64,000 nt of DNA, from NCBI GenBank assembly GCA_016176335.1, contig JACOXI010000006.1, positions 12,788 to 76,787 of the forward strand, written 5' to 3'. The notes below the pieces were generated by a model. The model had not been told where the DNA came from. It worked only from the letters and a program-made list of their open reading frames with translations, and did not search any database. The first letter of the stretch is position 1; each line of letters begins with the position of its first letter. The DNA comes from Candidatus Daviesbacteria bacterium (lineage in GTDB: Bacteria; Patescibacteriota; Microgenomatia; Daviesbacterales; UBA10151). The position numbers and the translations under genes were made by a program. Positions 33,154 through 43,977 of the stretch are shown here, in pieces.

Positions 33154-34005
33154 ATGGAAGAATCTATCTACGAGTTGGAAATAGACCTTTTGCAGCCTAA
33201 TCCTTTGCAGCCAAGAGGTTTAATCACCCCCGAATCTTTAGCGGAGCTGGCGGATTCTATCAAAGTACACGGCATACTGGAGCCTTTGGTGGTTGCCAAA
33301 ACACCCGCCGGTTATCAAATAATTGCCGGTGAGCGAAGATGGAGAGCCTCAAAAGTGGTGGGACTCGTCAAAGTACCGGTCATCATCCGTGAAACTACTC
33401 CGCAAGGTATGTTTGAGATGGCAATTGTGGAAAATGTACAAAGAATTGATCTGAATCCCTTGGAGCGCGCACAAGCATACAGAAGGCTGATGGACGAGTT
33501 TGGCTTGACTAATTCGGAGATTTCCGAAAGAGTGTCCAAAAGTCCTTCTTATATCTCCAATACAATCAGACTGCTGACCTTGCCCGATGCCTTAAAAGAT
33601 GCCTTAATGTCCGGTGCCACCACAGAAGGTCATGCAAGGGCCCTGGCTGCTTTGGAAGACCCTCATCTGGTAATTAACGCCTATAAGGAGGTGTTGAAAA
33701 GAAACCTGTCGGTCCGTGGCACGGAAGAGTTAGTCAGAAGATTGAGAGCACAACAGGGGATTGGGCCCAAAAGATCAGCTGTTGTTGAAACAATGCATAT
33801 ATTATCGGAACAGCTGGACAAGGTACAAAACGATCTGACTTCGACTTTGTCAAATAAAGTAGATAAGGCCCAAGTGAAATGTTCACAAACCGGTCAAAGG
33901 GCAAAAGTAGAGCTTGTATTGGAAGGGAATCCGGAAAAAACTACACCTCTCTTGGAGGATATCCGTCAGGCTATTGTCGGATATTTCAACCTTAAAGAGA
34001 ATTAG
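33154..34005 (+). CDS. parB: Chromosome partitioning protein ParB/Spo0J
   Basis: ParB box GILEPLVVAKTPAGYQIIAGERRWRAS. No parA alongside. Confidence 0.9.
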   Translation: MEESIYELEIDLLQPNPLQPRGLITPESLAELADSIKVHGILEPLVVAKTPAGYQIIAGERRWRASKVVGLVKVPVIIRETTPQGMFEMAIVENVQRIDLNPLERAQAYRRLMDEFGLTNSEISERVSKSPSYISNTIRLLTLPDALKDALMSGATTEGHARALAALEDPHLVINAYKEVLKRNLSVRGTEELVRRLRAQQGIGPKRSAVVETMHILSEQLDKVQNDLTSTLSNKVDKAQVKCSQTGQRAKVELVLEGNPEKTTPLLEDIRQAIVGYFNLKEN

Positions 34006-34008
34006 TTG

Positions 34009-34596
34009 CTACTTATTATTTACAAATCCGATACTTTGAGGCGGCCAGTATCTAAAAAAAGCTTTCCCGATGATTTCTTTTTTGGTCACACCTCCCCATT
34101 CCCTTGAATCCGAAGAATGCTGCCGATTATCACCCATAACAAAGTACTGGTCAGGGCCGGCTCTGACTGTTTGACCTTCGGATAAAAAGGAGCCATCTTC
34201 TGTTTTGGTTCCCGCAGGCAAATAGGTTTCATTCATTGCGACATCATTGACAAAGATGGTGTTGTTTTCCAGTCTGATGGTGTCTTTGGGCAGGGCAATT
34301 ATTCTTTTGATGAAGTCTTGTGATTCGTCCCTGGGATTTTTTAAGACAATAACATCTCCCCTTTTAGGAGTGCCAAATCTGTAACTTACTTTTTCCGTAA
34401 TGATGTAATCCCCATTGTGAAAGGTGGGGAGCATGGAGTTTCCGGACACTTTGTGGAATTGGGCAACGAACAAATATATCATGAAAAAAATCGCAACAAA
34501 AACCACAACTGTTTCAATAATTTCTATAAAATAACCGCCTATTTTATCAAAGAAACCTTTCTCTTCTCCGTAGTTTGGATAAGTATTCGGATCCAT
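34009..34596 (-). CDS. lepB: Signal peptidase I
   Basis: GNSMLPTF (catalytic Ser), PKRGDVIVLK and IKRIIALP (catalytic Lys) boxes. Confidence 0.9.
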   Translation of the reverse strand: MDPNTYPNYGEEKGFFDKIGGYFIEIIETVVVFVAIFFMIYLFVAQFHKVSGNSMLPTFHNGDYIITEKVSYRFGTPKRGDVIVLKNPRDESQDFIKRIIALPKDTIRLENNTIFVNDVAMNETYLPAGTKTEDGSFLSEGQTVRAGPDQYFVMGDNRQHSSDSREWGGVTKKEIIGKAFFRYWPPQSIGFVNNK

Positions 34597-34663
34597 GTTT
34601 TTGATTATCTCAAAGGAGTAAGTTGTGACGCAAGAGGGGGGATGTTAAAATTGTGTAAGTTTC

Positions 34664-34735
34664 GGACGGATAGCTCAGTGGTAGAGCGCTGCATTCACAT
34701 TGCAGATGCCGTGGGTTCAAATCCCTCTCCGTCCA
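34664..34735 (+). tRNA. tRNA-Val (anticodon CAC)
   Basis: Cloverleaf folded by hand: acceptor GGACGGA/TCCGTCC, anticodon stem CTGCA/TGCAG, loop TTCACAT, T-loop TTCAAAT. CCA not encoded. Confidence 0.85.
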
Positions 34736-34811
34736 CAGATTAGAATGTCTCAAATTGACTGACAGCTTGCCTGTATTTACAAAAATCACAATCTTTGTTT
34801 GCACTGGGCAT

Positions 34812-35201
34812 TTATCTAGATTTTAATTCTAAATCTTCTTTTTGAAGATCGAACTTTACCACAAATTTATCAAAAAAACCTTTCTGTCCGACAATCCCAT
34901 AAGCAGAACCTCTCATAGACATAAATCCTACTTCAGTTTTATATTCTATTCCCCCTACTTTTATTGAAATATTGTGAAGATAATAAAATTCCGGAAAACC
35001 TGTCAAACCGGAAACTTCTCGACGTTCTCCTTTAACTACATCTATTCGTAAAATTTCAGCAATATGTGCGTCAAATATACAAATATCTGCTCCTGAATCA
35101 ACTAAAACTTCATAAGGAACTTCTGTATCTTGTCTGATAACTTCAATTGGAATTACAGGACGAAGTACTCCGGGGCCGTACTTTTTATATCTAAATTTCA
35201 T
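34812..35201 (-). CDS. Retropepsin-like (clan AA) aspartic protease, small single-domain
   Basis: LVDSGADICIF with D-S/T-G-A catalytic motif and GxxG flap-like region. 129 aa. Confidence 0.7.
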   Translation of the reverse strand: MKFRYKKYGPGVLRPVIPIEVIRQDTEVPYEVLVDSGADICIFDAHIAEILRIDVVKGERREVSGLTGFPEFYYLHNISIKVGGIEYKTEVGFMSMRGSAYGIVGQKGFFDKFVVKFDLQKEDLELKSR

Positions 35202-35395
35202 TGATTAGAACCAACATATGAGGTTAGTTTAGAGGGTAATCTGGTTAAAATAGGTTTATCATAACCCAATTTACGTGCTTTATCCCAGACTAATTTAGCA
35301 GTTCTACCACTTGCCAAAACAGTCTTCTCATCACGCTTTAAAGCTACCCAAAGGCCTTTATATTTTTTATAAATATGCGTCCAGTCAATTGCCAT
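35198..35395 (-). CDS. DUF5678-like small protein (real start probably ATG 35395, not TTG 35401)
   Basis: MAIDWTHIYKKYKGLWVALKRDEKTVLASG... 4-nt overlap with the protease gene. Family assignment from memory. Confidence 0.5.
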   Translation of the reverse strand: MAIDWTHIYKKYKGLWVALKRDEKTVLASGRTAKLVWDKARKLGYDKPILTRLPSKLTSYVGSNQ

Positions 35396-35402
35396 AAGCA
35401 AA

Positions 35403-35433
35403 TAATATCACAATTTTGTAAGTTTTTTGCAAG
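35403..35433 (-). promoter_or_regulatory. Putative sigma70 promoter for DUF5678/protease pair (TTGCAA -35, extended TGnTATTAT -10); start codon ~7 nt downstream, leaderless-type
   Basis: Read on the minus strand: TTGCAAaaaacttacaaaattgTGaTATTATttgcttATG. Confidence 0.45.
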
Positions 35434-35588
35434 TTATTTCAATTATCTAACTCTCTTTTGAGCCAAAAAGTTCTCAAAATAAAAGCTATCTAACGTCAGG
35501 TGTTGGTAATCCAAAGTGCAAAGTCAGTCCACATCGAAAGTGGCTACCCGGATTTATTCTCCTAATTTTTTAATTGGCCAATTATTTT

Positions 35589-36041
35589 TCATTTTCTTTT
35601 TAATGGATCAAGTAAAGTATGCAAAATCATATACGGGATTCTATCTAGCTTTACATATTTAAACATTTTGTAGTTTGCTCTTCTTGCGGTAGAAGAAAGC
35701 TGATATTTCTGAATATTGCCCTTAGCGATGAACGGATAAAATCTTATTTCTCTGCGGAAACCGGCTTTTGTCTCCCATCTAAAGTTTATAAATAAAGGAG
35801 GTGATAGATGTCCCGCTTTTAAAACTTTTTCATAAATGTCCCAACCTGCTCCATAAATTGAAGCCTGTGGTTTATTGCTAACAGTTTTTACCTGAGCACG
35901 GAATAAACAACGTGAACATTGGATATCATACATTGGAAACCCTGCTGGTAGTAAAACTAATTCCTTCCCACAATTTGGACAGGGTATTAGTTCGCAAACC
36001 TCTTTTTCTCCTAAATCTCCTGTGAGTTTGTTATTCGCCAT
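35589..36041 (-). CDS. Zn-ribbon-containing PD-(D/E)xK-like nuclease (hypothetical)
   Basis: N-terminal TGDLGEKEV (Mrr/YraN/Hjc-like G..GE), CPNC...CSRC zinc ribbon, D...AQVK motif. Confidence 0.45.
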   Translation of the reverse strand: MANNKLTGDLGEKEVCELIPCPNCGKELVLLPAGFPMYDIQCSRCLFRAQVKTVSNKPQASIYGAGWDIYEKVLKAGHLSPPLFINFRWETKAGFRREIRFYPFIAKGNIQKYQLSSTARRANYKMFKYVKLDRIPYMILHTLLDPLKRK

Positions 36042-36042
36042 A

Positions 36043-36354
36043 CTATGGTTTTAACCCCCTCCCTGTTTTTGCAGAGGTATACTCAATTTTTGTAGGCGTA
36101 ACCTGTGCTAAAATAGGTGTTGCATCATTTCTTTCTGCACGAGACACCAAATTTTGCCGCTCTCTAGAAGAAAGTCCCGCCGGTTTTCCTAGTCCAGAAT
36201 ATTTAACCTGTGTCATCCACTCTTTGCCGCTTTTCCAGTTGGCAATCACATCAGCAGACCCACGACTTCCCGGTGATTGCTGGACGCTAGCTCCGGCTCT
36301 GCGTAGAGAATTTGCAACTCTATCTTCCGCTTTCAGTCCCTTCACTAATACCAC
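36043..36354 (-). CDS. Hjc-type (archaeal Holliday-junction-resolvase-like) PD-(D/E)xK nuclease-fold protein; catalytic Glu replaced by Gln (QVK)
   Basis: KGLKAEDRVANSLRRAG...GSRGSADVIA...TQVK...TPILAQV aligns with the Hjc motifs. Gly/Ala/Arg-rich and higher GC than the flanks. Confidence 0.55.
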   Translation of the reverse strand: MVLVKGLKAEDRVANSLRRAGASVQQSPGSRGSADVIANWKSGKEWMTQVKYSGLGKPAGLSSRERQNLVSRAERNDATPILAQVTPTKIEYTSAKTGRGLKP

Positions 36355-36692
36355 CCCCTTCCAGTATTAAAAATATTACAATTTGGACATTGCCAATCAG
36401 AATTATTCCCTCTATCTGGATGGTTTTGATTATCAGAAGGATTATAAACATGATACCAGCGACATTCAAGATCAAAAGCACTTTTTGCTGAATTTGAGTT
36501 TTCAAACCAAAAGTGAGTATACCTTCCGGTATTATTATTAACATGCTGATTCAACCGTTGAGCTAAATTAACATCTGATCGACCGACATAATGCCCAGTT
36601 GTTCCATCCCTCGATAAGATATAGGCTCCAGCAGAGACCCAGGATACATAACTATTTACGTTTTGCGTATTTAATTGATATGGACCACTCAT
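36345..36692 (-). CDS. GIY-YIG nuclease domain protein with C-terminal CPNC zinc-finger-like tail
   Basis: GAYIL...GHYVGRSDVNLAQRLNQH...DLECRWYHVYNP matches the GIY/YIG/R/H/E/N signature. Confidence 0.6.
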   Translation of the reverse strand: MSGPYQLNTQNVNSYVSWVSAGAYILSRDGTTGHYVGRSDVNLAQRLNQHVNNNTGRYTHFWFENSNSAKSAFDLECRWYHVYNPSDNQNHPDRGNNSDWQCPNCNIFNTGRGWY

Positions 36693-37354
36693 TAAATTTC
36701 ACCACCTTCCAAGTTTTGCTGAGGTTTAAAAACTCCCACAGCTACACCATCTATATTAAACAATTCGTCCTTAGCAGATTTATCAAAAACTAATGGTTGA
36801 TATTGCGGATTTTCCGGCTCAAGAATTATTTGAGTTCCTGTTTCTTTATAACGCTTAACTGTTGCTCCCTCTCTAGTCCGGGCAACGACTATGGAGTTAG
36901 GGGTAGGTACTGGATTTGGTTCGAATATTATAATGTCCCCATCCTGAATTCGAGGATACATGCTATCACCGACTGCAGTTATGAGATAAAGCTGTCTTTT
37001 GCTATTCTTTCCAAGAAGTCGAAGAGGAATTGGCAACATTTTTTCAGTAAACTCTTCCACTATCTGTTCCATGGGTGGACCACATCTTGCGCTTCCTAGA
37101 AGTGGAAGGAAAGAAACTGCTCCGGTTGCATCCTCTAAAGAATTTACTCGTATAACTTTTCCAGAAGCATCTCTAACGATTAAACCCAAGTTTTCAAGTG
37201 TTTTGATATGGTAAAAAACTGCATTTGGAGATTCAAAACCCAGTTCATCTGCTATATCGCTCATAGATAAAGTACTCCCATGGGCTAGAGCAGAACGTAA
37301 AAGTTCCATAATTTTTTGCTGTGGCGGTGTTAATCCTTTGGATGGCTTTAACAT
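36692..37354 (-). CDS. LexA/CI-like repressor: wHTH plus S24 self-cleaving peptidase domain (second copy in the window)
   Basis: N-terminal LTPPQQKIMELL...ADELGF..., C-terminal GDSM (Ser) ... VKRY (Lys). TAATG overlap with the GIY-YIG gene. The ORF-track TTG start at 37393 is the -35 box. Confidence 0.75.
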   Translation of the reverse strand: MLKPSKGLTPPQQKIMELLRSALAHGSTLSMSDIADELGFESPNAVFYHIKTLENLGLIVRDASGKVIRVNSLEDATGAVSFLPLLGSARCGPPMEQIVEEFTEKMLPIPLRLLGKNSKRQLYLITAVGDSMYPRIQDGDIIIFEPNPVPTPNSIVVARTREGATVKRYKETGTQIILEPENPQYQPLVFDKSAKDELFNIDGVAVGVFKPQQNLEGGEI

Positions 37355-37364
37355 ATCATTGTAT

Positions 37365-37393
37365 ATTTTAGCAATACAACCAAGAAAATGCAA
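37365..37393 (-). promoter_or_regulatory. Promoter of the S24-nuclease operon (TTGCAT-17-TAAAAT) with the palindrome TTGTAT-N9-ATACAA straddling the -10
   Basis: Read on the minus strand: TTGCATtttcttggTTGTATtgcTAAAATATACAAtgatATG. Confidence 0.5.
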
Positions 37394-37575
37394 GGAGCTA
37401 TTTTAAAGTTCTTGAATATTTTTCGTTTGAATACCTATTTCTTTCTCTGCTTCCTGGATTTCTTCCAAAATCTCTTTTGGATCTCGGTGGTTTGTATCTG
37501 ATCCAGATCCTGCTGGTTTGTAGGCACTGGCAGAGAGAATGTAGTTATTTTCTTCTTGGCCTTTTTCTGCTTATT

Positions 37576-38166
37576 TTATTTCTTCCATTCGATATGGCCA
37601 TTTACATTATGTTTCTCATAAACTTCTAAAACTTCTGTCACAAAGGCTAATACTTCCTGATGCCCTTCTTTTTTGGCCAATTTATACATTCTGATAAACA
37701 TCTTTTTACCGGATTCAGTTTGTTTTAGGTTTTTCTTAAGAAAGTTGCAGCGACTACAAAGCGTCTGGCCGTTATCGATAGTAGATTTTCCACCCTGATC
37801 TCTTGGAATCACATGATCTACATGTAATACTGCTCCTTCTCTGGTTCCCATCCCACATTGCACACATTTATATTTGTCTCTTTCGAAAATTGTTTTCTTT
37901 TGAGCAGGGGTAAAACTATCTAATTGGCGTTGGTCAACAAATCGTGGATCATACCTATAAATTCCTGTGCGTATTTTAATAAGGTAACCACTTTGGTGCA
38001 GTTGTCTTATTTGGCGATCAGGATCGCGAAAGATTTTACCTGTTCTTTTCTTATATTTATCAGTTGCCCAATCTACTATTTCCGGATGTGAAATATCCCG
38101 ATTGGGGTTTTTCTTAAAAAACTCCATAATCAGTCTTGCTTGGGATATACTATTTTTATTATTCAT
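37576..38166 (-). CDS. HNH endonuclease with N-terminal DNA-binding domain (putative restriction endonuclease)
   Basis: CVQCGMGTREGAVLHVDHVIPRDQGGKSTIDNGQTLCSRCNFLKKN. Confidence 0.8.
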   Translation of the reverse strand: MNNKNSISQARLIMEFFKKNPNRDISHPEIVDWATDKYKKRTGKIFRDPDRQIRQLHQSGYLIKIRTGIYRYDPRFVDQRQLDSFTPAQKKTIFERDKYKCVQCGMGTREGAVLHVDHVIPRDQGGKSTIDNGQTLCSRCNFLKKNLKQTESGKKMFIRMYKLAKKEGHQEVLAFVTEVLEVYEKHNVNGHIEWKK

Positions 38167-38173
38167 TGCTTAA

Positions 38174-39010
38174 TTAGAAAAGATTTTCTTGGTCAATCTT
38201 TGCTTCAAGTTTTAATCGTTTAATGGCTAAATCACAATATTCCTTATCGATATCTACACCTAGGCCCTTACGGTTATTTAAAGAAGCAGCAATCAGTGTT
38301 GTTCCACTACCCAGAAATGGATCTAAAACAACATCACCAATAAAACTAAATAACTTAATACATCTTCTTGGTAACTCTATGGGGAATGGTGCTGGATGAC
38401 CAATTTTCTTTTTGCTTTCACCGTTAAAAGTCCATATCCCGTTTGTCCATTCCATAAATTCTTGCTTTGTGATGTCATTTTTTCTACTCCCTCCTGTTTT
38501 TTTCCAACTATCTTTATACAAAACCAAAATCAACTCTACCGGAGCAATAACATAAGGAGCGGAAGCAGACATAAACGAACCCCAAGCGGTGCGACGAGAT
38601 ATGTTTCCTTCGTTCCAAATAATCGTTGAATGATACTTCCAACCAACATCTTTTGCAATTTTTGTAATGTCCGCGCCAACTGATTTTTGTCCGCCTTTAT
38701 TTTTATCAAGTGGAATATTTAGTAAAAAACGCCCTTCATTTTTTGCCAAGTCAAAACATTTCTTAATCCACTTTTGAGTAAATTCTAAATAATCCTCATA
38801 AGTCAGATCATCAGCATGGGAATTGTAGTGAATATCAACATTATAGGGCGGTGAAGTAACGATTAGATCAATACAAGATTTAGGAATGGCTGTAATCTTC
38901 AAAAAATCTTCGTTGTAAACAAGGATATCCTTACTCTTAAAGTAAGGTCCTTTTGTCTTACTTGTGAAATTTACCTCTTCTGATTGATAGTTTACCATTA
39001 TATTCCCCAT
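38174..39010 (-). CDS. DNA methyltransferase, beta-class (SPPY motif IV before FxGxG motif I); likely N4-cytosine or N6-adenine
   Basis: IDLIVTSPPYNVDIHY and LDPFLGSGTTLIAA. Confidence 0.85.
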   Translation of the reverse strand: MGNIMVNYQSEEVNFTSKTKGPYFKSKDILVYNEDFLKITAIPKSCIDLIVTSPPYNVDIHYNSHADDLTYEDYLEFTQKWIKKCFDLAKNEGRFLLNIPLDKNKGGQKSVGADITKIAKDVGWKYHSTIIWNEGNISRRTAWGSFMSASAPYVIAPVELILVLYKDSWKKTGGSRKNDITKQEFMEWTNGIWTFNGESKKKIGHPAPFPIELPRRCIKLFSFIGDVVLDPFLGSGTTLIAASLNNRKGLGVDIDKEYCDLAIKRLKLEAKIDQENLF

Positions 39011-39025
39011 AATTATTTTTCCTAA

Positions 39026-39661
39026 TTACCCATTGATTTTACTCTTCCCAAGTATACCTACAACTTTACCTTTCAAAGTTACCCTTTCCGTAAAATAGAT
39101 AATATCATACTTGGGATTTTCTGGTTTTAAGTACAAATAGGGCGGTTTATCTTCCGACATAAATCTTTTAACAGTTGTTTCACCATCCACATCTGCCAAA
39201 ACTATATCTCCGGATGAAAACTCTTTGGCACTTTTAACCAAAACTATATCTCCACCTTCAATCCCCGCATTAATCATGGAATCTCCGGAAATTTTTAGAA
39301 TAAATACTTCATCTTGCAAACGGGCAACATCAGGTGAAATTGTTTGCCACTGCCCACCAATCTCTACAGCAGAAATCGGAGAGCCAGCATGGGTAATGCC
39401 CAAAAAAGGAACAAAAGGAGGTTTACCAAGTACCTCGTAGCCTAAAGGTAAAATAGCTATTCCTCTGGCTTGAGATTCGTTACGCTTTATAAGCTGTTGA
39501 TCTTCCAGTTTAACGAGTAGATCGAGTATTGATTGGTTAGAAACTACACCAAGGCTGCTTTTCATTTCCTCAAAAGAAGGGGGGTAACCTGTGTCTTTGA
39601 TATATTTATATATCACATCAAGAAGCTGTTTTTGCCTTTCGGTAAGAGAAGATTTACCCAT
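39026..39661 (-). CDS. lexA: LexA repressor (canonical: HTH plus S24 peptidase)
   Basis: LTERQKQLLDVIYKYIKDTGYPPSFEEM..., GDSM, VKRF. Only 15 nt upstream of the methyltransferase gene. Confidence 0.85.
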   Translation of the reverse strand: MGKSSLTERQKQLLDVIYKYIKDTGYPPSFEEMKSSLGVVSNQSILDLLVKLEDQQLIKRNESQARGIAILPLGYEVLGKPPFVPFLGITHAGSPISAVEIGGQWQTISPDVARLQDEVFILKISGDSMINAGIEGGDIVLVKSAKEFSSGDIVLADVDGETTVKRFMSEDKPPYLYLKPENPKYDIIYFTERVTLKGKVVGILGKSKING

Positions 39662-39667
39662 AAATTC

Positions 39668-39697
39668 AATATACTAGACCATATAGTCGGGTGTCAA
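39668..39697 (-). promoter_or_regulatory. lexA promoter TTGACA-18-TATATT; ATG 6 nt after the -10 (leaderless-type); imperfect palindrome GACCATATAGTC in the spacer
   Basis: Read on the minus strand: cctcTTGACAcccgactatatggtctagTATATTgaatttATG. Confidence 0.55.
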
Positions 39698-39745
39698 GAG
39701 GGGAAAATCCGGTTTCCTCTTGTATCTGCTTCATTTAAACTCATA

Positions 39746-39775
39746 TTTTCTTCCCCATATTAAACCATACTTTAA
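39746..39775. repeat. 30-bp direct repeat copy 1 (TTTTCTTCCCCATATTAAACCATACTTTAA)
   Basis: Near-identical copy at 40827-40855. The two flank the RhuM-like gene. Contains CCATA-N5-CCATA. Confidence 0.8.
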
Positions 39776-39784
39776 GAATTTATT

Positions 39785-40777
39785 TTAGCTTTTTCCTTTC
39801 TTTAGTAATTTCTTAGCCATTTTGTCAAAATCGGAGATATATTTTTTATCTTCTATTCTTTTATATTCCACAAATTCCCCGTCAGCCTTACCCTGCGCTT
39901 GTTCCATACTTACCTTGCCGGCATTTTTCAATATACCTTTACCCATCAACGTAAGGTACTCATCAAGCTTCTTGACCCAGCCTTTCATTGTCATCGCTTT
40001 CTCGTTTATTGCTTGAATTTCAGCAAAAGAAAGATAGGCATCAATAATACGATTAAGCATTTGCAGCTCTTCTTCATAAAGATAATTTTTTGCGATATAG
40101 ATATCTCTTTCAATCGGATGGTGACCTGGAAAGTTTGTCAGACCAAGATTCTTTTTATTTTTATTAACCCGTTCCACTATAATTTCGGCCGCTGTTTTAC
40201 CTGTTACCGCGTAATGCATCTTGTTTTGCACGGTTTTGAAAAAAAGATCAGTCTCTTTAGCATTTTTGCGATAGTCAATAGATGTTGCATAAATATCCGT
40301 TACTTTTTGATATAACATCCGTTCACTGCTGCGAATATCACGAATTCTCTGTAACAACTCTTCAAAATATCGGGATTTGCGCCCTCCTTGCTTAAGACGT
40401 ACATCATCAAGAGTAAAACCTTTTACTATGTATTCTTTCAATCGTTCTGTTGCCCATATCCGAAATTGTGTACCCCGGACAGAATTTACTCTATACCCAA
40501 CTGAAATGATTAAATCTAAATTATAGTGTGCTACTTGGTATGTACGGCCATCAGATAGATGTTGTGCAAATTTTGCACTAGTTATAGTTTGATCTAGTTC
40601 CTTGGTTTGATAAATATTTTTAATGTGCTTTGTAATACCGGTTCTGTCTGTTTGAAATAGATTTGCCATCTGATCCTGCGTCAACCAGGCTGTTTCATCT
40701 TCAAAATGAACATCAACGGAAATTATGCCATCCTCTGATTTATAAATAATTACCTGATCTTCACTTATCTTTTTCAT
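39785..40777 (-). CDS. RhuM-family protein (virulence-protein RhuM / DNA-damage-inducible DinD-like)
   Basis: N-terminal block IIYKSEDGIISVDVHFEDETAWLTQDQMANLF...HYNLDLIISVGYRVNSVRGTQFRIWATERLKEY. Confidence 0.75.
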   Translation of the reverse strand: MKKISEDQVIIYKSEDGIISVDVHFEDETAWLTQDQMANLFQTDRTGITKHIKNIYQTKELDQTITSAKFAQHLSDGRTYQVAHYNLDLIISVGYRVNSVRGTQFRIWATERLKEYIVKGFTLDDVRLKQGGRKSRYFEELLQRIRDIRSSERMLYQKVTDIYATSIDYRKNAKETDLFFKTVQNKMHYAVTGKTAAEIIVERVNKNKKNLGLTNFPGHHPIERDIYIAKNYLYEEELQMLNRIIDAYLSFAEIQAINEKAMTMKGWVKKLDEYLTLMGKGILKNAGKVSMEQAQGKADGEFVEYKRIEDKKYISDFDKMAKKLLKKGKS

Positions 40778-40826
40778 AGTTTTACCTTTCTTAAATTCTC
40801 TAAAATTTCTTTTTCTAATTTTCGCC

Positions 40827-40855
40827 TTTTCTTCCCATATTAAACCATACTTTAA
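40827..40855. repeat. 30-bp direct repeat copy 2
   Basis: 29/30 identical to 39746-39775. Confidence 0.8.
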
Positions 40856-40878
40856 ATTTAGGGTCTACTCCTTCGTCC

Positions 40879-40892
40879 TTCGATTACACTCA
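40879..40892. repeat. 14-bp direct repeat TTCGATTACACTCA (tRNA T-arm-like), copy 1
   Basis: Identical at 41916-41929. One-mismatch copy at 41940-41953. Confidence 0.75.
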
Positions 40893-40970
40893 GGACTTTG
40901 GAAGTACAAGTAGGGACTGGGGTTTAGGGTATAGTCGGAAACAAAAATAATTAACGGATTCTGTGGATTA

Positions 40971-41240
40971 CTACTGGTAATCTTTTCTGTCTACTATTCT
41001 TCCGTCTGAATCATGAACGAATACTGCTGTTCCAAGATTTTTTGCAATTGACTCGGCATATTTTGCCGCTTCTTGTTGTGTATTAAATGATTGGCTCATT
41101 TTCTCTGACAATAAACTTTTTACAATCCACCCATTTTCTCGCGGAAGAACATGCTGATCTTTTTTTCCTTTTTCAACAGCTTCTTTATACGCAAGAATGG
41201 TTGGATTGTCCTGATCGGTTTTATACGGTATTTTTTTCAT
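40971..41240 (-). CDS. DUF2188-family small protein
   Basis: HVLPRENGWIVKS...FNTQQEAAKYAESIAKNLGTAVFVHDSDGRI. Confidence 0.6.
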   Translation of the reverse strand: MKKIPYKTDQDNPTILAYKEAVEKGKKDQHVLPRENGWIVKSLLSEKMSQSFNTQQEAAKYAESIAKNLGTAVFVHDSDGRIVDRKDYQ

Positions 41241-41245
41241 AATAG

Positions 41246-41407
41246 TTATTCCTTTATGGACGCTATATACGAAATTATATCACCTTCAGTCAATTGTTTG
41301 CCAGATAAATAATCGATTAATTTTTGTCTATTATCAAATTCTATATGGACAAATTGTAATTTTTCATCTGAGGTATATGAGCTTTCCACAATATTAATTT
41401 TAACCAT
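41246..41407 (-). CDS. Small hypothetical protein (53 aa; below the ORF-track cutoff)
   Basis: ATG...TAA ORF (MVKINIVESSYTSDEKLQFVHIEF...) filling the gap between the P-loop and DUF2188 genes. Same strand, 8-nt and 5-nt spacers. Confidence 0.4.
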   Translation of the reverse strand: MVKINIVESSYTSDEKLQFVHIEFDNRQKLIDYLSGKQLTEGDIISYIASIKE

Positions 41408-41414
41408 AGGATAT

Positions 41415-41849
41415 TTACGTTACCCATAACAGTGTTCTTCTTGATCCTGCATGTGTCATGTAAAAATGAGCATCGCTAAACTTTCTATCTCTGTTTAGAA
41501 AAGCAATAAAAGCTCGCTTTAGATCATCAGGTATTACTGCATAAATAATAGGTTTCTTTTTTGCTTTTAAAATCTTTTTAAGTTTTATCCCGGCACCTTC
41601 CTCTGTAGATAAAGTGGCATCTAAAATGATGCAGTGCTTGCGATTTAGCTGTGTTACCAAAAATTCTGTTTTTCCAGATGCGGTTCCTCCACATAATAAG
41701 ATTACCTCTTTAAAGGGGTTTTCTTTTAGGGCTTTTTCAAAATTCTTATCAGCTAATCTAGCAGATTCACGATGAAAGAATTCCGCTTTTTCAGGAGAAT
41801 AGTTTGGTAGCTTTTTCTTGATTTCGTCTGCCGAGATAACTAGAGGCAT
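41415..41849 (-). CDS. Small P-loop NTPase/kinase (zeta-toxin/AAA_33-like Walker A)
   Basis: VILLCGGTASGKTEF Walker A. 144 aa. Confidence 0.5.
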   Translation of the reverse strand: MPLVISADEIKKKLPNYSPEKAEFFHRESARLADKNFEKALKENPFKEVILLCGGTASGKTEFLVTQLNRKHCIILDATLSTEEGAGIKLKKILKAKKKPIIYAVIPDDLKRAFIAFLNRDRKFSDAHFYMTHAGSRRTLLWVT

Positions 41850-41915
41850 ATCTTTTTTTCTACATATTGAAACACAGTTATACTTTTAAATTCTACCAGG
41901 GTAATCTTAGCATGG

Positions 41916-41953
41916 TTCGATTACACTCACCACAGGTACTTCGATTATACTCA
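41916..41953. repeat. Two tandem copies of the 14-bp repeat (TTCGATTACACTCA ccacaggtac TTCGATTATACTCA)
   Basis: Together with 40879-40892, these bracket the 3-gene cassette at 40971-41849. Confidence 0.75.
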
Positions 41954-42001
41954 GTGCCATGGCAAAAATGAGGAGAGTTAGATAGCGAAAGTAGGAGGGA
42001 T

Positions 42002-42676
42002 TTATCCTGCCTTCCGCAAGGATGAAATCGCAGCAAGAAAATGTGCAGCTTTGTACAGTCTGTCAGGGTTTTCAACAGACCCTCTCTGTAAGACTGCTTG
42101 TCTTACTATAGCCTCAACTATCCCGATAGTACCCCAGACAGTTTCCGGTGTAATATTATATTTCCAGAAAGAAGGATGTAACATAAGACCTGTATCATCG
42201 TCTGCAGGAGTAATACCTAAATAATAGAAATTAACGGTTTCTGCTTGAGCAAGATTTCTTAAGGTCATTGCAAAAGCTAAAGCTACTGACAGACTAAATC
42301 CATAGTTAGGTTCCACCATCGCCCTAGACGGGAATAAACCATTGATAAATCGTGTTGCTTCATCTTCAGTGGAAATTCCTACCTTCCGAAGAAACCTGGT
42401 AGGATCAATTTTACCCGACTTGTAACTATCCATTTGAAATAATAGTCTAAATCCTTGTCTGGCCTTATCAAACATTCCAAATAAATCATTTGCACCTGCT
42501 CTGCCTCCAACAGGTATTGTTGTTACAGGGATATTTAGGCCTGCTAGATTTAATCTATCAACAACTCTTAGCATTCCATCAATAGCTACTCTGGATACAA
42601 AATTCAATCCACCTGCAAAAGTAGGTGTCTCGGGCATACCTTCCCGGTAAACTTCCAGTTCAAGATTGTTAGACAT
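42002..42676 (-). CDS. Hypothetical protein (no recognisable domain; higher GC than neighbours)
   Basis: 224-aa ORF of atypical composition. Confidence 0.45.
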   Translation of the reverse strand: MSNNLELEVYREGMPETPTFAGGLNFVSRVAIDGMLRVVDRLNLAGLNIPVTTIPVGGRAGANDLFGMFDKARQGFRLLFQMDSYKSGKIDPTRFLRKVGISTEDEATRFINGLFPSRAMVEPNYGFSLSVALAFAMTLRNLAQAETVNFYYLGITPADDDTGLMLHPSFWKYNITPETVWGTIGIVEAIVRQAVLQRGSVENPDRLYKAAHFLAAISSLRKAG

Positions 42677-42695
42677 AATGGGTTTATAGTATAGA

Positions 42696-42711
42696 ACACA
42701 ATATATTGTGT
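42696..42711. promoter_or_regulatory. Perfect 16-bp palindrome ACACAATATATTGTGT in a divergent promoter region, ~20 bp upstream of a TATAAT box
   Basis: Self-complementary 16-mer. The TATAAT sits 8 nt before the flippase ATG at 42742. Confidence 0.5.
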
Positions 42712-42741
42712 CAAGTATTTCTTATCTGTATAATTCATCAA

Positions 42742-43977
42742 ATGAAAGAAATTTTAAAACAATCATCCTGGCTTTTCACAGCACAATTGCTCACCAGAAT
42801 CATCAGTTTTTTTTATACAATCTATCTTGCCAGAATTTTAGGGGTGTCGGAGTTTGGTCTTTTAACTGTGGCTCTTGCCTACTTTTCCATTATTTCATCA
42901 GTGTCCGACCTTGGTTTTAATAGATTTCTCATCCGGGAAATTGCCAGAGGTAAAATAAAAATCCAAGAGCTCATCTGGAACATTGCGATGTTGCGGTTGA
43001 CTCTGACATCAGTCTTGTTTGCTGTCTTTTCAATATTTCTCTATATCCTCGATCCGGATAAAATGAGAGTGAGTTTAATTCTTTTGGCCACCCTTGCCAT
43101 CTTGCCTCAATCAATAGCTTTAACCTTTGATGCTGTATTTGTGGGACTTAGAAAATTACAATTTTCCGCAATATCTCTACTTCTGTCCGGTTTGGCTACA
43201 GTGGCAATAGGTATTTTTTTAGTTAGTAGGGGACTGGGTCCTACTGGTGCTATCAATGCCATAATTTTTGGACAACTGGTTTATGTCTTGGTTCTTTTCT
43301 TCTTTTTCTTGAAGCACGAAGGTGTCACTTTGCAATCGATAAAATTGCCGATATTAAAACAAACAATTACCGGTTCCTTACCATACGGGTTGCTGGGAAT
43401 AATGGGACTGCTGTATTTTAAGGTGGATGCTATTATTTTGTCTTATTTTAGGGGCAGTTTTGAAACAGGTATTTACGGGGCGGCCTACAGGTTTTTAGAG
43501 GCAGCCACTTTTATTCCCTACGCCTTCTTTGCCTCATTGTTTCCGGTTTTGGCAAAAGCTCATGACTTATCTCCGGCTTCGGTTAAACAATTGTATTTTA
43601 AATCATTGAAAATAATGGCGCTCCTAGGTTTTATTTTGGCAGCGGCTTACTTTTTTATACTCCCGCAAGTGATTTATATTTTTTTACCGGACTATCTTTT
43701 GTCAGTTGGGGCCATCAAGATTTTAGCCTTTTCCATTCCCTTCATGTTTCTTCACACTCCGGCAGTGGCAGTCCTTTTTTCTACTGATAAATATTTAAAA
43801 AAAGTGTTACTTTTTTCAGCTGTAATTTTGGGCTTTAATATAGTAGTAAACCTGATATTTATTCCCCGGTATGGTTTTTTGGCCGCATCCTGGATCACTG
43901 TTATATCAGAGGCGCTGTCATTTATAGTCTTTTTTCTGTTTACTCAATTTCAAATTCTTCAAAGAAAACATCAATGA
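42742..43977 (+). CDS. Polysaccharide/O-antigen flippase (MOP superfamily, Wzx-like)
   Basis: 12-14 TM helices, Wzx-like N-terminus MKEILKQSSWLFTAQLLTRIISFFYTIYLAR. Confidence 0.75.
   Translation: MKEILKQSSWLFTAQLLTRIISFFYTIYLARILGVSEFGLLTVALAYFSIISSVSDLGFNRFLIREIARGKIKIQELIWNIAMLRLTLTSVLFAVFSIFLYILDPDKMRVSLILLATLAILPQSIALTFDAVFVGLRKLQFSAISLLLSGLATVAIGIFLVSRGLGPTGAINAIIFGQLVYVLVLFFFFLKHEGVTLQSIKLPILKQTITGSLPYGLLGIMGLLYFKVDAIILSYFRGSFETGIYGAAYRFLEAATFIPYAFFASLFPVLAKAHDLSPASVKQLYFKSLKIMALLGFILAAAYFFILPQVIYIFLPDYLLSVGAIKILAFSIPFMFLHTPAVAVLFSTDKYLKKVLLFSAVILGFNIVVNLIFIPRYGFLAASWITVISEALSFIVFFLFTQFQILQRKHQ

Follow-up and report, generated by a model that had tools for sequence, protein, structure and literature searches.

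In a 64-kb stretch of Candidatus Daviesbacteria DNA (64,000 nucleotides of contig JACOXI010000006.1, hereafter the window), a lexA gene (lexA1), a DNA methyltransferase (MTase) gene and an HNH endonuclease gene are packed, as read from the sequence, like an operon behind one operator-bearing promoter. We consider it probable that these genes form a LexA-autoregulated lexA-M-R operon, transcribed from a nearly leaderless start and carrying a type II-like restriction-modification (R-M) cassette as its cargo. Across a survey of about 170 related loci, LexA was linked to restriction enzymes in most loci examined from bacteria of the candidate phyla radiation (CPR), and the window exemplifies a lineage-wide link between LexA and restriction systems that has apparently not been described. 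CPR bacteria have few regulators, are without CRISPR and use R-M for defence. The elements of the unit are listed below in the order of transcription.

39668-39697, minus strand: lexA promoter, with the -35 element TTGACA (39697-39692), an 18-nucleotide (nt) spacer and the -10 element TATATT (39673-39668).
39675-39690, minus strand: candidate LexA operator CCGACTATATGGTCTA, an inverted repeat filling the spacer between the -35 and -10 elements.
39026-39661, minus strand: lexA1, 211 amino acids (aa), with PF01726 and PF00717 domains and a TIGR00498 match.
39011-39025, minus strand: spacer of 15 nt between lexA and the MTase gene, with an AGGA motif resembling a ribosome-binding site.
38174-39010, minus strand: beta-class N6_N4 DNA methyltransferase (M gene), 278 aa, PF01555.
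37576-38166, minus strand: winged-helix and HNH endonuclease (R gene), 196 aa, HNH domain.

The list of minus-strand open reading frames (ORFs) and the domain searches bear out an earlier note on this DNA, made from the letters only, which had read the block as three co-oriented ORFs for LexA, an SPPY/FxGxG methyltransferase and an HNH protein. Of the two intergenic distances it gave, the 15 nt between lexA and the MTase gene stands, whereas the gap between the MTase and HNH genes measures 7 nt and not 8. The shared TTGACA-18-TATATT promoter of leaderless type that it had proposed is the top sigma-70-like match (11/12) in the 8.8 kb from 34000 to 42800, and its -10 element ends 6 nt before the ATG of lexA1; the transcript is therefore predicted to be leaderless or nearly so. 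Promoter-like sites as a class are not enriched in this region (25 found against 28 expected). A promoter or terminator of its own between lexA and the MTase gene would have spoken for separate transcription; both were looked for in the 15-nt gap and none was detected, nor was any terminator-like site found on the minus strand from 39697 to 37576.

The lexA promoter and the box within it show conservation across 68 distinct sequences from upstream of orthologous lexA genes; these share the layout cTCTTGACAcc-CGACTAwATAGTCGGG-TAtaAT with the ATG a few bases on. Exact TTGACA is kept in 45 of these 68 regions, and the distance from operator to ATG is 11-16 nt in 62 of them. The clade operator consensus CCGACTAwATAGTCGG is a 16-bp inverted repeat, and the box GACCATATAGTC to which the earlier note had drawn attention, at 39677-39688 on the plus strand, is real and lies within this conserved spacer palindrome. 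Using a position weight matrix (PWM) built from 35 distinct sites (training range 17.6-27.0 bits), we found the window operator, with 18.9-21.4 bits, to be the top match in the window, the next-best match reaching 13.8 bits, which is within the range of shuffled sequences. Autoregulation through an operator in lexA's own promoter is thereby supported in silico, and a repressor bound to the spacer palindrome would block RNA polymerase.

A further element was observed in the upstream regions of related loci. Twelve of the 68 distinct orthologous loci (L122, L132, L134, L142, L145, L146, L156, L157, L160, L169, L170 and L175) have an exact copy of the DnaA-box consensus TTATCCACA just before the lexA promoter, at a distance of 5-25 nt, compared with 0.12 loci expected by shuffling. 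It is also exact in seven of the eight loci examined in which LexA is fused to a methylase (L007, L010, L043, L052, L059, L083 and L085; see below), and the eighth, L072, has a copy with one mismatch. Upstream of lexA1 in the window the box is absent. A possible meaning of its placement is that DnaA acts on lexA expression, or that the origin of replication is close by.

LexA1 itself has the features of a canonical LexA repressor: Pfam searches assign LexA_DNA_bind (2e-14, residues 4-67) and Peptidase_S24 (7e-26), the protein reaches 155.8 bits with the lexA equivalog model TIGR00498, whose cutoff is 110.95, and it aligns over its full length with the LexA structures of T. maritima and E. coli. 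The cleavage site is Ala92-Gly93 and the catalytic residues are Ser128 (in GDSM) and Lys165 (in VKRF); neither the cleavage site nor the Ser-Lys dyad varies among 14 orthologues or among the fusion proteins, and LexA1 looks cleavage-competent. In a survey of its 120 best matches, the homologues were stand-alone proteins of 212-213 aa, 65-85% identical and named 'repressor LexA' in their sources; they stem from Daviesbacteria, Levybacteria and Curtissbacteria and are confined to CPR. These relationships make lexA1 the canonical LexA of Microgenomates, passed on by vertical descent. A phage CI-like repressor or a LexA of a mobile element was considered and ruled out by the uniform, lineage-restricted relatives of 212-213 aa with the same promoter.

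The two genes behind lexA1 have the marks of an R-M pair, as the earlier note had held. The MTase matches N6_N4_Mtase (PF01555, 3e-46) and the PADLOC model MTase_II (2.3e-97). It is assigned to the beta class since SPPY (residues 53-56) precedes the S-adenosylmethionine motif LGSGTT, of FxGxG type, near residue 232; SPPY suggests N4-cytosine methylation, and the nearest solved structures are 2zie and N4-cytosine MTases. The HNH protein matches HNH in Pfam (4e-12) and REase_II in PADLOC (2.5e-11), and its motif D117-H118, N141 and two CxxC pairs are invariant in 20 homologues. Its AlphaFold (AF2) model (mean confidence score, pLDDT, 81) shows a winged helix at the N-terminus, an HNH core with bound zinc and helices at the C-terminus. 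Foldseek matched only the HNH core and a generic winged helix of this model, with McrA and Gme HNH as the best HNH matches; as a search for a homologue of solved structure, sequence comparison and Foldseek gave no known full-length type II enzyme. Palindrome depletion in the window, tried as a guide to the recognition site, was limited to the usual shortage of CTAG and a mild one of GATC and gave no indication of that site.

More than 1500 close homologues of the HNH protein, about 65% identical, occur across unrelated phyla. In a scan of one genome per GTDB species, the cassette was present in at least 533 species genomes of bacteria and archaea, with hosts including Helicobacter, Brachyspira, Bacteroidota, Patescibacteria and DPANN archaea. 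Eighty loci were fetched, and in about 70 of them an MTase homologue is placed directly upstream of the HNH gene. Relatives of the cassette are about 65% identical in protein and about 73% in DNA; the DNA homology begins at about 38920-38950 in every locus, past the variable first ~25 MTase codons, and stops exactly at the stop codon of the HNH gene. To judge from this distribution and these boundaries, the M and HNH genes are a mobile type II-like R-M cassette. A phage origin was rejected, as only two loci with the HNH cassette were found in 2.9 million viral contigs of IMG/VR. In the Brachyspira loci L036, L054 and L075, MTase and HNH were observed as one ORF of about 475-480 aa.

The opposite assignment, an orphan methylase next to a phage-type or homing HNH nuclease, could draw on the closest solved relatives of the HNH protein, which are the HNH domains of IscB/Cas9 and the modification-dependent McrA, and on the absence of a full-length match to a solved type II enzyme. 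We find it barely credible, however, given the adjacency of the two genes in most species loci and their fusion in Brachyspira, the sharp common DNA boundaries, the near absence from viral contigs and the match to PADLOC models derived from REBASE. Moreover, a methyl-dependent nuclease beside its own methylase would be suicidal, and the pair is thus expected to behave as a classical type II-like unit with M before R. The family of the HNH protein pairs with an R-M methylase, so that the concern of the earlier note, that it might belong to a non-restriction family, is not borne out.

To place the unit among its relatives, we compared 86 orthologous lexA loci, including three orthologues that were looked up and 80 from a metagenome scan. 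In the three orthologues (LexA 74-85% identical), a different DNA methylase gene is located 2-96 nt after lexA, with HsdS nearby. Directly downstream of lexA, 82 of the 86 loci have a same-strand ORF, mostly at -26 to +20 nt from the lexA stop codon, and one has a convergent gene. A single family of proteins about 650 aa long, with the domains HSDR_N_2, N6_Mtase and Eco57I, accounts for most of these downstream ORFs (69/82); it matches the PADLOC models MTase_I (2e-162) or REase_MTase_IIG (5e-173) and has HsdS nearby. The other cargo comprises N6_N4 methylases (L098, L116, L162 and L167), a C5 methylase (L149/L151), an MvaI/BcnI restriction nuclease (L123), a LexA-methylase fusion (L128) and, in further loci, unassigned genes. 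Locus L116 mirrors the window, with lexA, an 85% identical MTase and HNH. The earlier note had asked whether orthologous genomes have lexA without the R-M pair: the pair is present in L116, and other R-M cargo is what orthologous lexA genes usually carry. In the loci sampled, then, this bacterial lineage normally has an R-M gene behind lexA. Where LexA is 55-75% identical, the 650-aa partner has a median identity of 65% (40 distinct pairs), and because the partner diverges roughly in step with LexA, the lexA-650-aa operon appears to be old and long-maintained.

Since orthologous lexA genes almost always head some R-M operon, the window is most likely a cassette-swap variant in which M and HNH replaced an earlier R-M cargo; this replacement is likelier than the insertion of R-M genes into the lexA transcription unit that the earlier note had suggested. 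In keeping with a swap, no locus has a DNA homologue of the stretch made up of the final ~12 lexA1 codons, the spacer and the initial ~25 MTase codons, and the C-terminus of LexA1, ILGKSKING, differs from the clade consensus. The 220-nt spacer between HNH and the next gene downstream, lexA2 (37355-37575), was tried as the remnant of a displaced hsdS, but a blastx comparison with every ORF of the lexA loci returned no significant match, and the idea was dropped.

Several genes in this slot had no convincing Pfam or PADLOC match (L111:3782-4555, L122:3714-4097, L156:5624-6067, L175:1089-1460 and L182:4124-5191) and are candidates for unrecognised restriction or defence proteins; the gene after lexA could be a good place to look for new ones. 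In the common operons of the order lexA, 650-aa methylase gene and hsdS, an extra variable gene was seen between methylase and hsdS (L090:8607-9413, L165:5662-6432 and L094:8563-10035), encoding either a protein of about 260 aa without assigned family or a Schlafen/AlbA_2 and HATPase protein. No HsdR-like helicase gene was found within 5-6 kb in these operons.

The coupling goes further in relatives in which regulator and enzyme are one protein. Starting from the HNH gene, we found a LexA-family gene upstream of the methylase in nine of the 80 species loci, nearly all of them in Patescibacteria; seven of the nine have LexA and methylase as a single ORF of 454-486 aa, and this fusion recurs in the metagenome loci L007/L008. 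Altogether, LexA, S24 and MTase form a single ORF in L007, L010, L043, L052, L059, L072, L083, L085, L128 and L176. These fusions span two LexA clades, that of the window (L010, with 46% identity, and L128) and one from Parcubacteria at about 30% identity, and at least four methylase lineages that are mutually 25-39% identical, and all keep the cleavage site and the catalytic dyad. Repeated independent fusion is a classical sign of functional coupling. In the window, lexA1 and the MTase gene share the reading frame with one TAA stop between them, and a LexA-methylase fusion as in the relatives would be one base change away (39011-39028). Among 35 cluster representatives of this MTase family that have N-terminal extensions, a LexA fusion occurs in only one cluster and ParB fusions in four. 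Among the top 120 matches to the Parcubacteria-type LexA domain, PF01555 is present in 13, and many others exceed plain LexA in length. Five stand-alone lexA genes of the Parcubacteria type were inspected, with DpnI as the next gene in two and a type II methylase in one. One fusion locus, L052 (CAYSCV010000136.1), is a 2.2-kb contig binned as 'Methanosarcinales archaeon', with a Parcubacteria-type LexA-methylase fusion and the layout of DnaA box and promoter; it is probably misbinned.

The adjacency could also be a by-product of genome dynamics, with a defence island or hot spot 3' of lexA collecting cassettes that bring their own signals and for which LexA control is incidental. The island-like block at 34.8-42.7 kb by tRNA-Val fits such an origin, as do the many R-M types found behind lexA and the flanks of the lexA-R-M unit, which are unrelated genes that differ in every locus examined. 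Nevertheless, we consider a hot spot clearly unlikely: neither separate promoters nor att sites would fit into spacings of -26 to +20 nt, MTases of at least four lineages have repeatedly become fused in frame to LexA, and the 650-aa partner diverges in step with LexA.

Under the autoregulated operon that we favour, a LexA dimer would bind CCGACTA-N2-TAGTCGG in the spacer between the -35 and -10 elements and hold lexA, M and R at a low, homeostatic level. RecA on single-stranded DNA, arising from DNA damage, phage replication or incoming DNA, would trigger self-cleavage of LexA at Ala-Gly, whereupon lexA, M and R would be derepressed together, M preceding R in the predicted transcript. LexA would thus fill the slot of the small controller (C) protein of classical R-M systems. 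Gene identities, spacing, operator conservation, the linkage counts and the fusions are read directly from sequence; co-transcription, LexA binding, SOS induction and a selective benefit are what we infer from them. Beyond the window, we tentatively suggest that across CPR LexA was recruited as the standard built-in R-M controller, with lexA and an exchangeable cassette of R-M genes or methyl-dependent nucleases as one transcription unit and fused into one protein in some lineages, a generalisation to which we give slightly less than even credence. That SOS-inducible restriction is the selected function across CPR is likewise a serious possibility, on which we remain somewhat more doubtful than convinced.

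Several points weigh against this interpretation. In E. coli, restriction alleviation means that damaged cells lower restriction rather than raise it, and the SOS response is thought to dampen restriction, not to drive it. Weak promoter-like matches lie within the MTase gene (38658-38630, 9/12), and internal promoters are possible. Two of the five stand-alone Parcubacteria-type lexA genes precede uncharacterised genes, one convergent and one a co-directional gene of 355 aa. The loci are metagenomic and some are near-duplicates, with 40 distinct complete pairs of lexA and 650-aa gene left after dereplication. Finally, pattern searches and PWM scans covering the 64-kb window and 572 kb of flanking DNA from related loci revealed no second operator, so that the GACCATATAGTC-like box which the earlier note proposed to seek upstream of SOS genes was met with there upstream of no gene other than lexA. 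In a motif scan, neither the window nor the 572 kb of related DNA contained recA or uvr genes, and because of this the absence of further operators says little about an SOS regulon.

The missing boxes are also the starting point for regarding LexA as a dedicated, cis-encoded R-M controller that replaces the C protein and controls its own operon only, rather than as a global SOS regulator, with S24 serving mainly for dimerisation or as a private induction switch. This is compatible with the autoregulated operon. In its favour, the operator occurs only at lexA promoters in the DNA searched, LexA is almost invariably joined or fused to an R-M gene, and two LexA-nuclease units stand in tandem in the window. 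Furthermore, in L025 and L030 an HTH_3 protein of 69-72 aa, resembling a C protein, occupies the position of LexA before the same cassette (82% identical methylase), and because it replaces LexA there, this position appears to be a regulator slot. However, Ala-Gly, Ser and Lys are invariant in all clades, which argues for retained cleavage of the RecA type, LexA1 comfortably passes the lexA equivalog model, and DNA without recA and uvr is a poor place to look for other boxes; on balance we regard a purely dedicated controller as rather unlikely. The SOS regulon of Patescibacteria has reportedly been analysed by Sanchez-Osuna, Barbe and Erill in 2017.

The signal might, alternatively, be tied to DNA uptake rather than defence: in CPR cells that import DNA, incoming single-stranded DNA would activate RecA and provoke LexA cleavage, and the methylase, made first, would protect or mark new and repaired DNA, or the nucleases would recycle nucleotides. 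CPR bacteria depend on external nucleotides, and the competence-induced DpnA of pneumococcus, which plays such a part, offers a precedent. The gene after lexA is usually a methylase or a fusion containing one, and DpnI-family genes are found behind lexA in Parcubacteria. Still, the proposal is purely inferential, the sequence does not separate it from the defence reading, and in L123 a restriction nuclease, not a methylase, comes right behind lexA; we judge it highly unlikely.

The lexA-M-R unit is embedded in a region with a second LexA-nuclease arrangement and an upstream cassette, the features of which are as follows.

39785-40777, minus strand: RhuM / PDC-S05 gene, just upstream of the lexA promoter.
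36692-37354, minus strand: lexA2, a second LexA-family gene with its own upstream region.
35589-36692, minus strand: three small, tightly packed nuclease genes behind lexA2, namely the next three entries.
36345-36692, minus strand: GIY-YIG gene.
36043-36354, minus strand: PD-(D/E)xK/Hjc-like gene.
35589-36041, minus strand: gene resembling the DpnI catalytic domain.

The presence of lexA2, which is located 1.6 kb downstream of lexA1, is 25% identical to it and heads its own nuclease operon, does away with the idea of the earlier note that lexA1 might be the only lexA of the cell. Its score against TIGR00498 (111.1 bits) is barely above the cutoff of 110.95, and it has Cys-Gly at the cleavage site, with Ser and Lys kept. 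No lexA2 was found in IMG/VR viral contigs. There is no methylase among the genes of the lexA2 block, and the window has two units of LexA and nucleases in tandem. The sequence TTGTAT-N9-ATACAA is a possible operator overlapping the -10 region of lexA2.

The block at 34.8-42.7 kb beside tRNA-Val (34664-34736) is island-like, with toxin-like genes, small nucleases and slightly lower GC; an Rfam search of 34-43 kb gave nothing except tRNA-Val. Its remaining minus-strand genes (34812-35401 and 40971-42676) include a pair of DUF5678 and retropepsin-like aspartyl protease genes, a DUF2188 protein, a zeta-toxin-like P-loop fragment (41415-41849) and a gene of 224 aa of no assigned family. The RhuM/PDC-S05 gene is flanked by 29-nt direct repeats that are 90% identical (39747-39775 and 40827-40855; family D4), the nearer of which lies 50 nt upstream of the -35 element of lexA1. 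A part of this repeat, GGGGAAGAAAATATGAG, is also found upstream of lexA in L103, in a 90-nt upstream stretch without the RhuM gene, and the RhuM/PDC-S05 unit looks like a cassette inserted beside the lexA promoter. Another motif of 19 nt, GTCCTTCGATTACACTCAG, recurs in the island at 40875, 41912 and 41936.

If the proposed coupling is true, it would represent a new control logic for restriction, with the host's sensor of DNA damage as the controller, and would give LexA a function in CPR bacteria. Single-stranded DNA arising from damage, phage or DNA uptake would then directly induce innate immunity and DNA methylation, the opposite of restriction alleviation in model bacteria, and in the fused proteins self-cleavage set off by RecA would separate the methylase from the domain that binds the operator. 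The material offered by these loci is a defined 16-bp operator, a self-cleaving fusion of regulator and enzyme, and natural pairs of split and fused forms.

The control of R-M systems is usually ascribed to small C proteins, promoter methylation and antisense RNA. The window unit has elements in common with the C-protein systems C.PvuII, C.AhdI and C.Esp1396I, in which a cis-encoded DNA-binding dimer upstream of the R-M genes autoregulates its promoter. It has, however, no regulator of about 70-100 aa with an Xre-type helix-turn-helix (HTH) and C-boxes; a full LexA with winged helix and self-cleaving S24 domain stands there instead. It also differs in its order of regulator, M and R, in an operator that fills the promoter spacer, implying repression only, and in a regulator that is the host's vertically inherited gene, outside the mobile cassette, and could in principle respond to RecA.

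Operons that begin with lexA (lexA-dinF of E. coli and lexA-imuA-imuB-dnaE2) likewise have an autoregulated lexA promoter with downstream cargo, and the operons of colicins E2, E7 and E9 co-express a LexA-controlled HNH DNase with a protective partner, whereas here the cargo is an R-M system and the linkage is lineage-wide and involves many R-M types. The WYL proteins BrxR/CapW, and CapH-CapP, are also repressors beside a defence system that are relieved by a DNA-damage or phage signal; they belong to other protein families with other sensing, while the sensor here would be the LexA/RecA axis of the cell.

The closest published hint we found is the statistical association of LexA sites with COG0732 (HsdS) in the SOS meta-regulon of the human gut (Cornish et al. 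2014, PMC3998124), which is a prediction in trans in gut bacteria, without a lexA-R-M operon, CPR or fusions. A review of R-M regulation mentions LexA for toxin-antitoxin systems only (PMC3874152), and SOS, repressors and operons all go unmentioned in a 2026 preprint on CPR methyltransferases. In the literature searched we found no description of a LexA-R-M operon or fusion; an earlier description in work on SOS in Patescibacteria is possible.

The fusions of the relatives join a promoter-binding domain to a methylase, as do M.SsoII, M.EcoRII and M.MspI with their N-terminal autoregulatory HTH, but what is fused in them is an entire LexA of about 200 aa that looks cleavable, and in the window itself LexA and MTase are separate ORFs, unlike the fused DNA-binding domain and methylase of the M.SsoII-like enzymes. 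By analogy, the window unit would work like a C-controlled system and its fused relatives like the M.SsoII type, as members of neither family.

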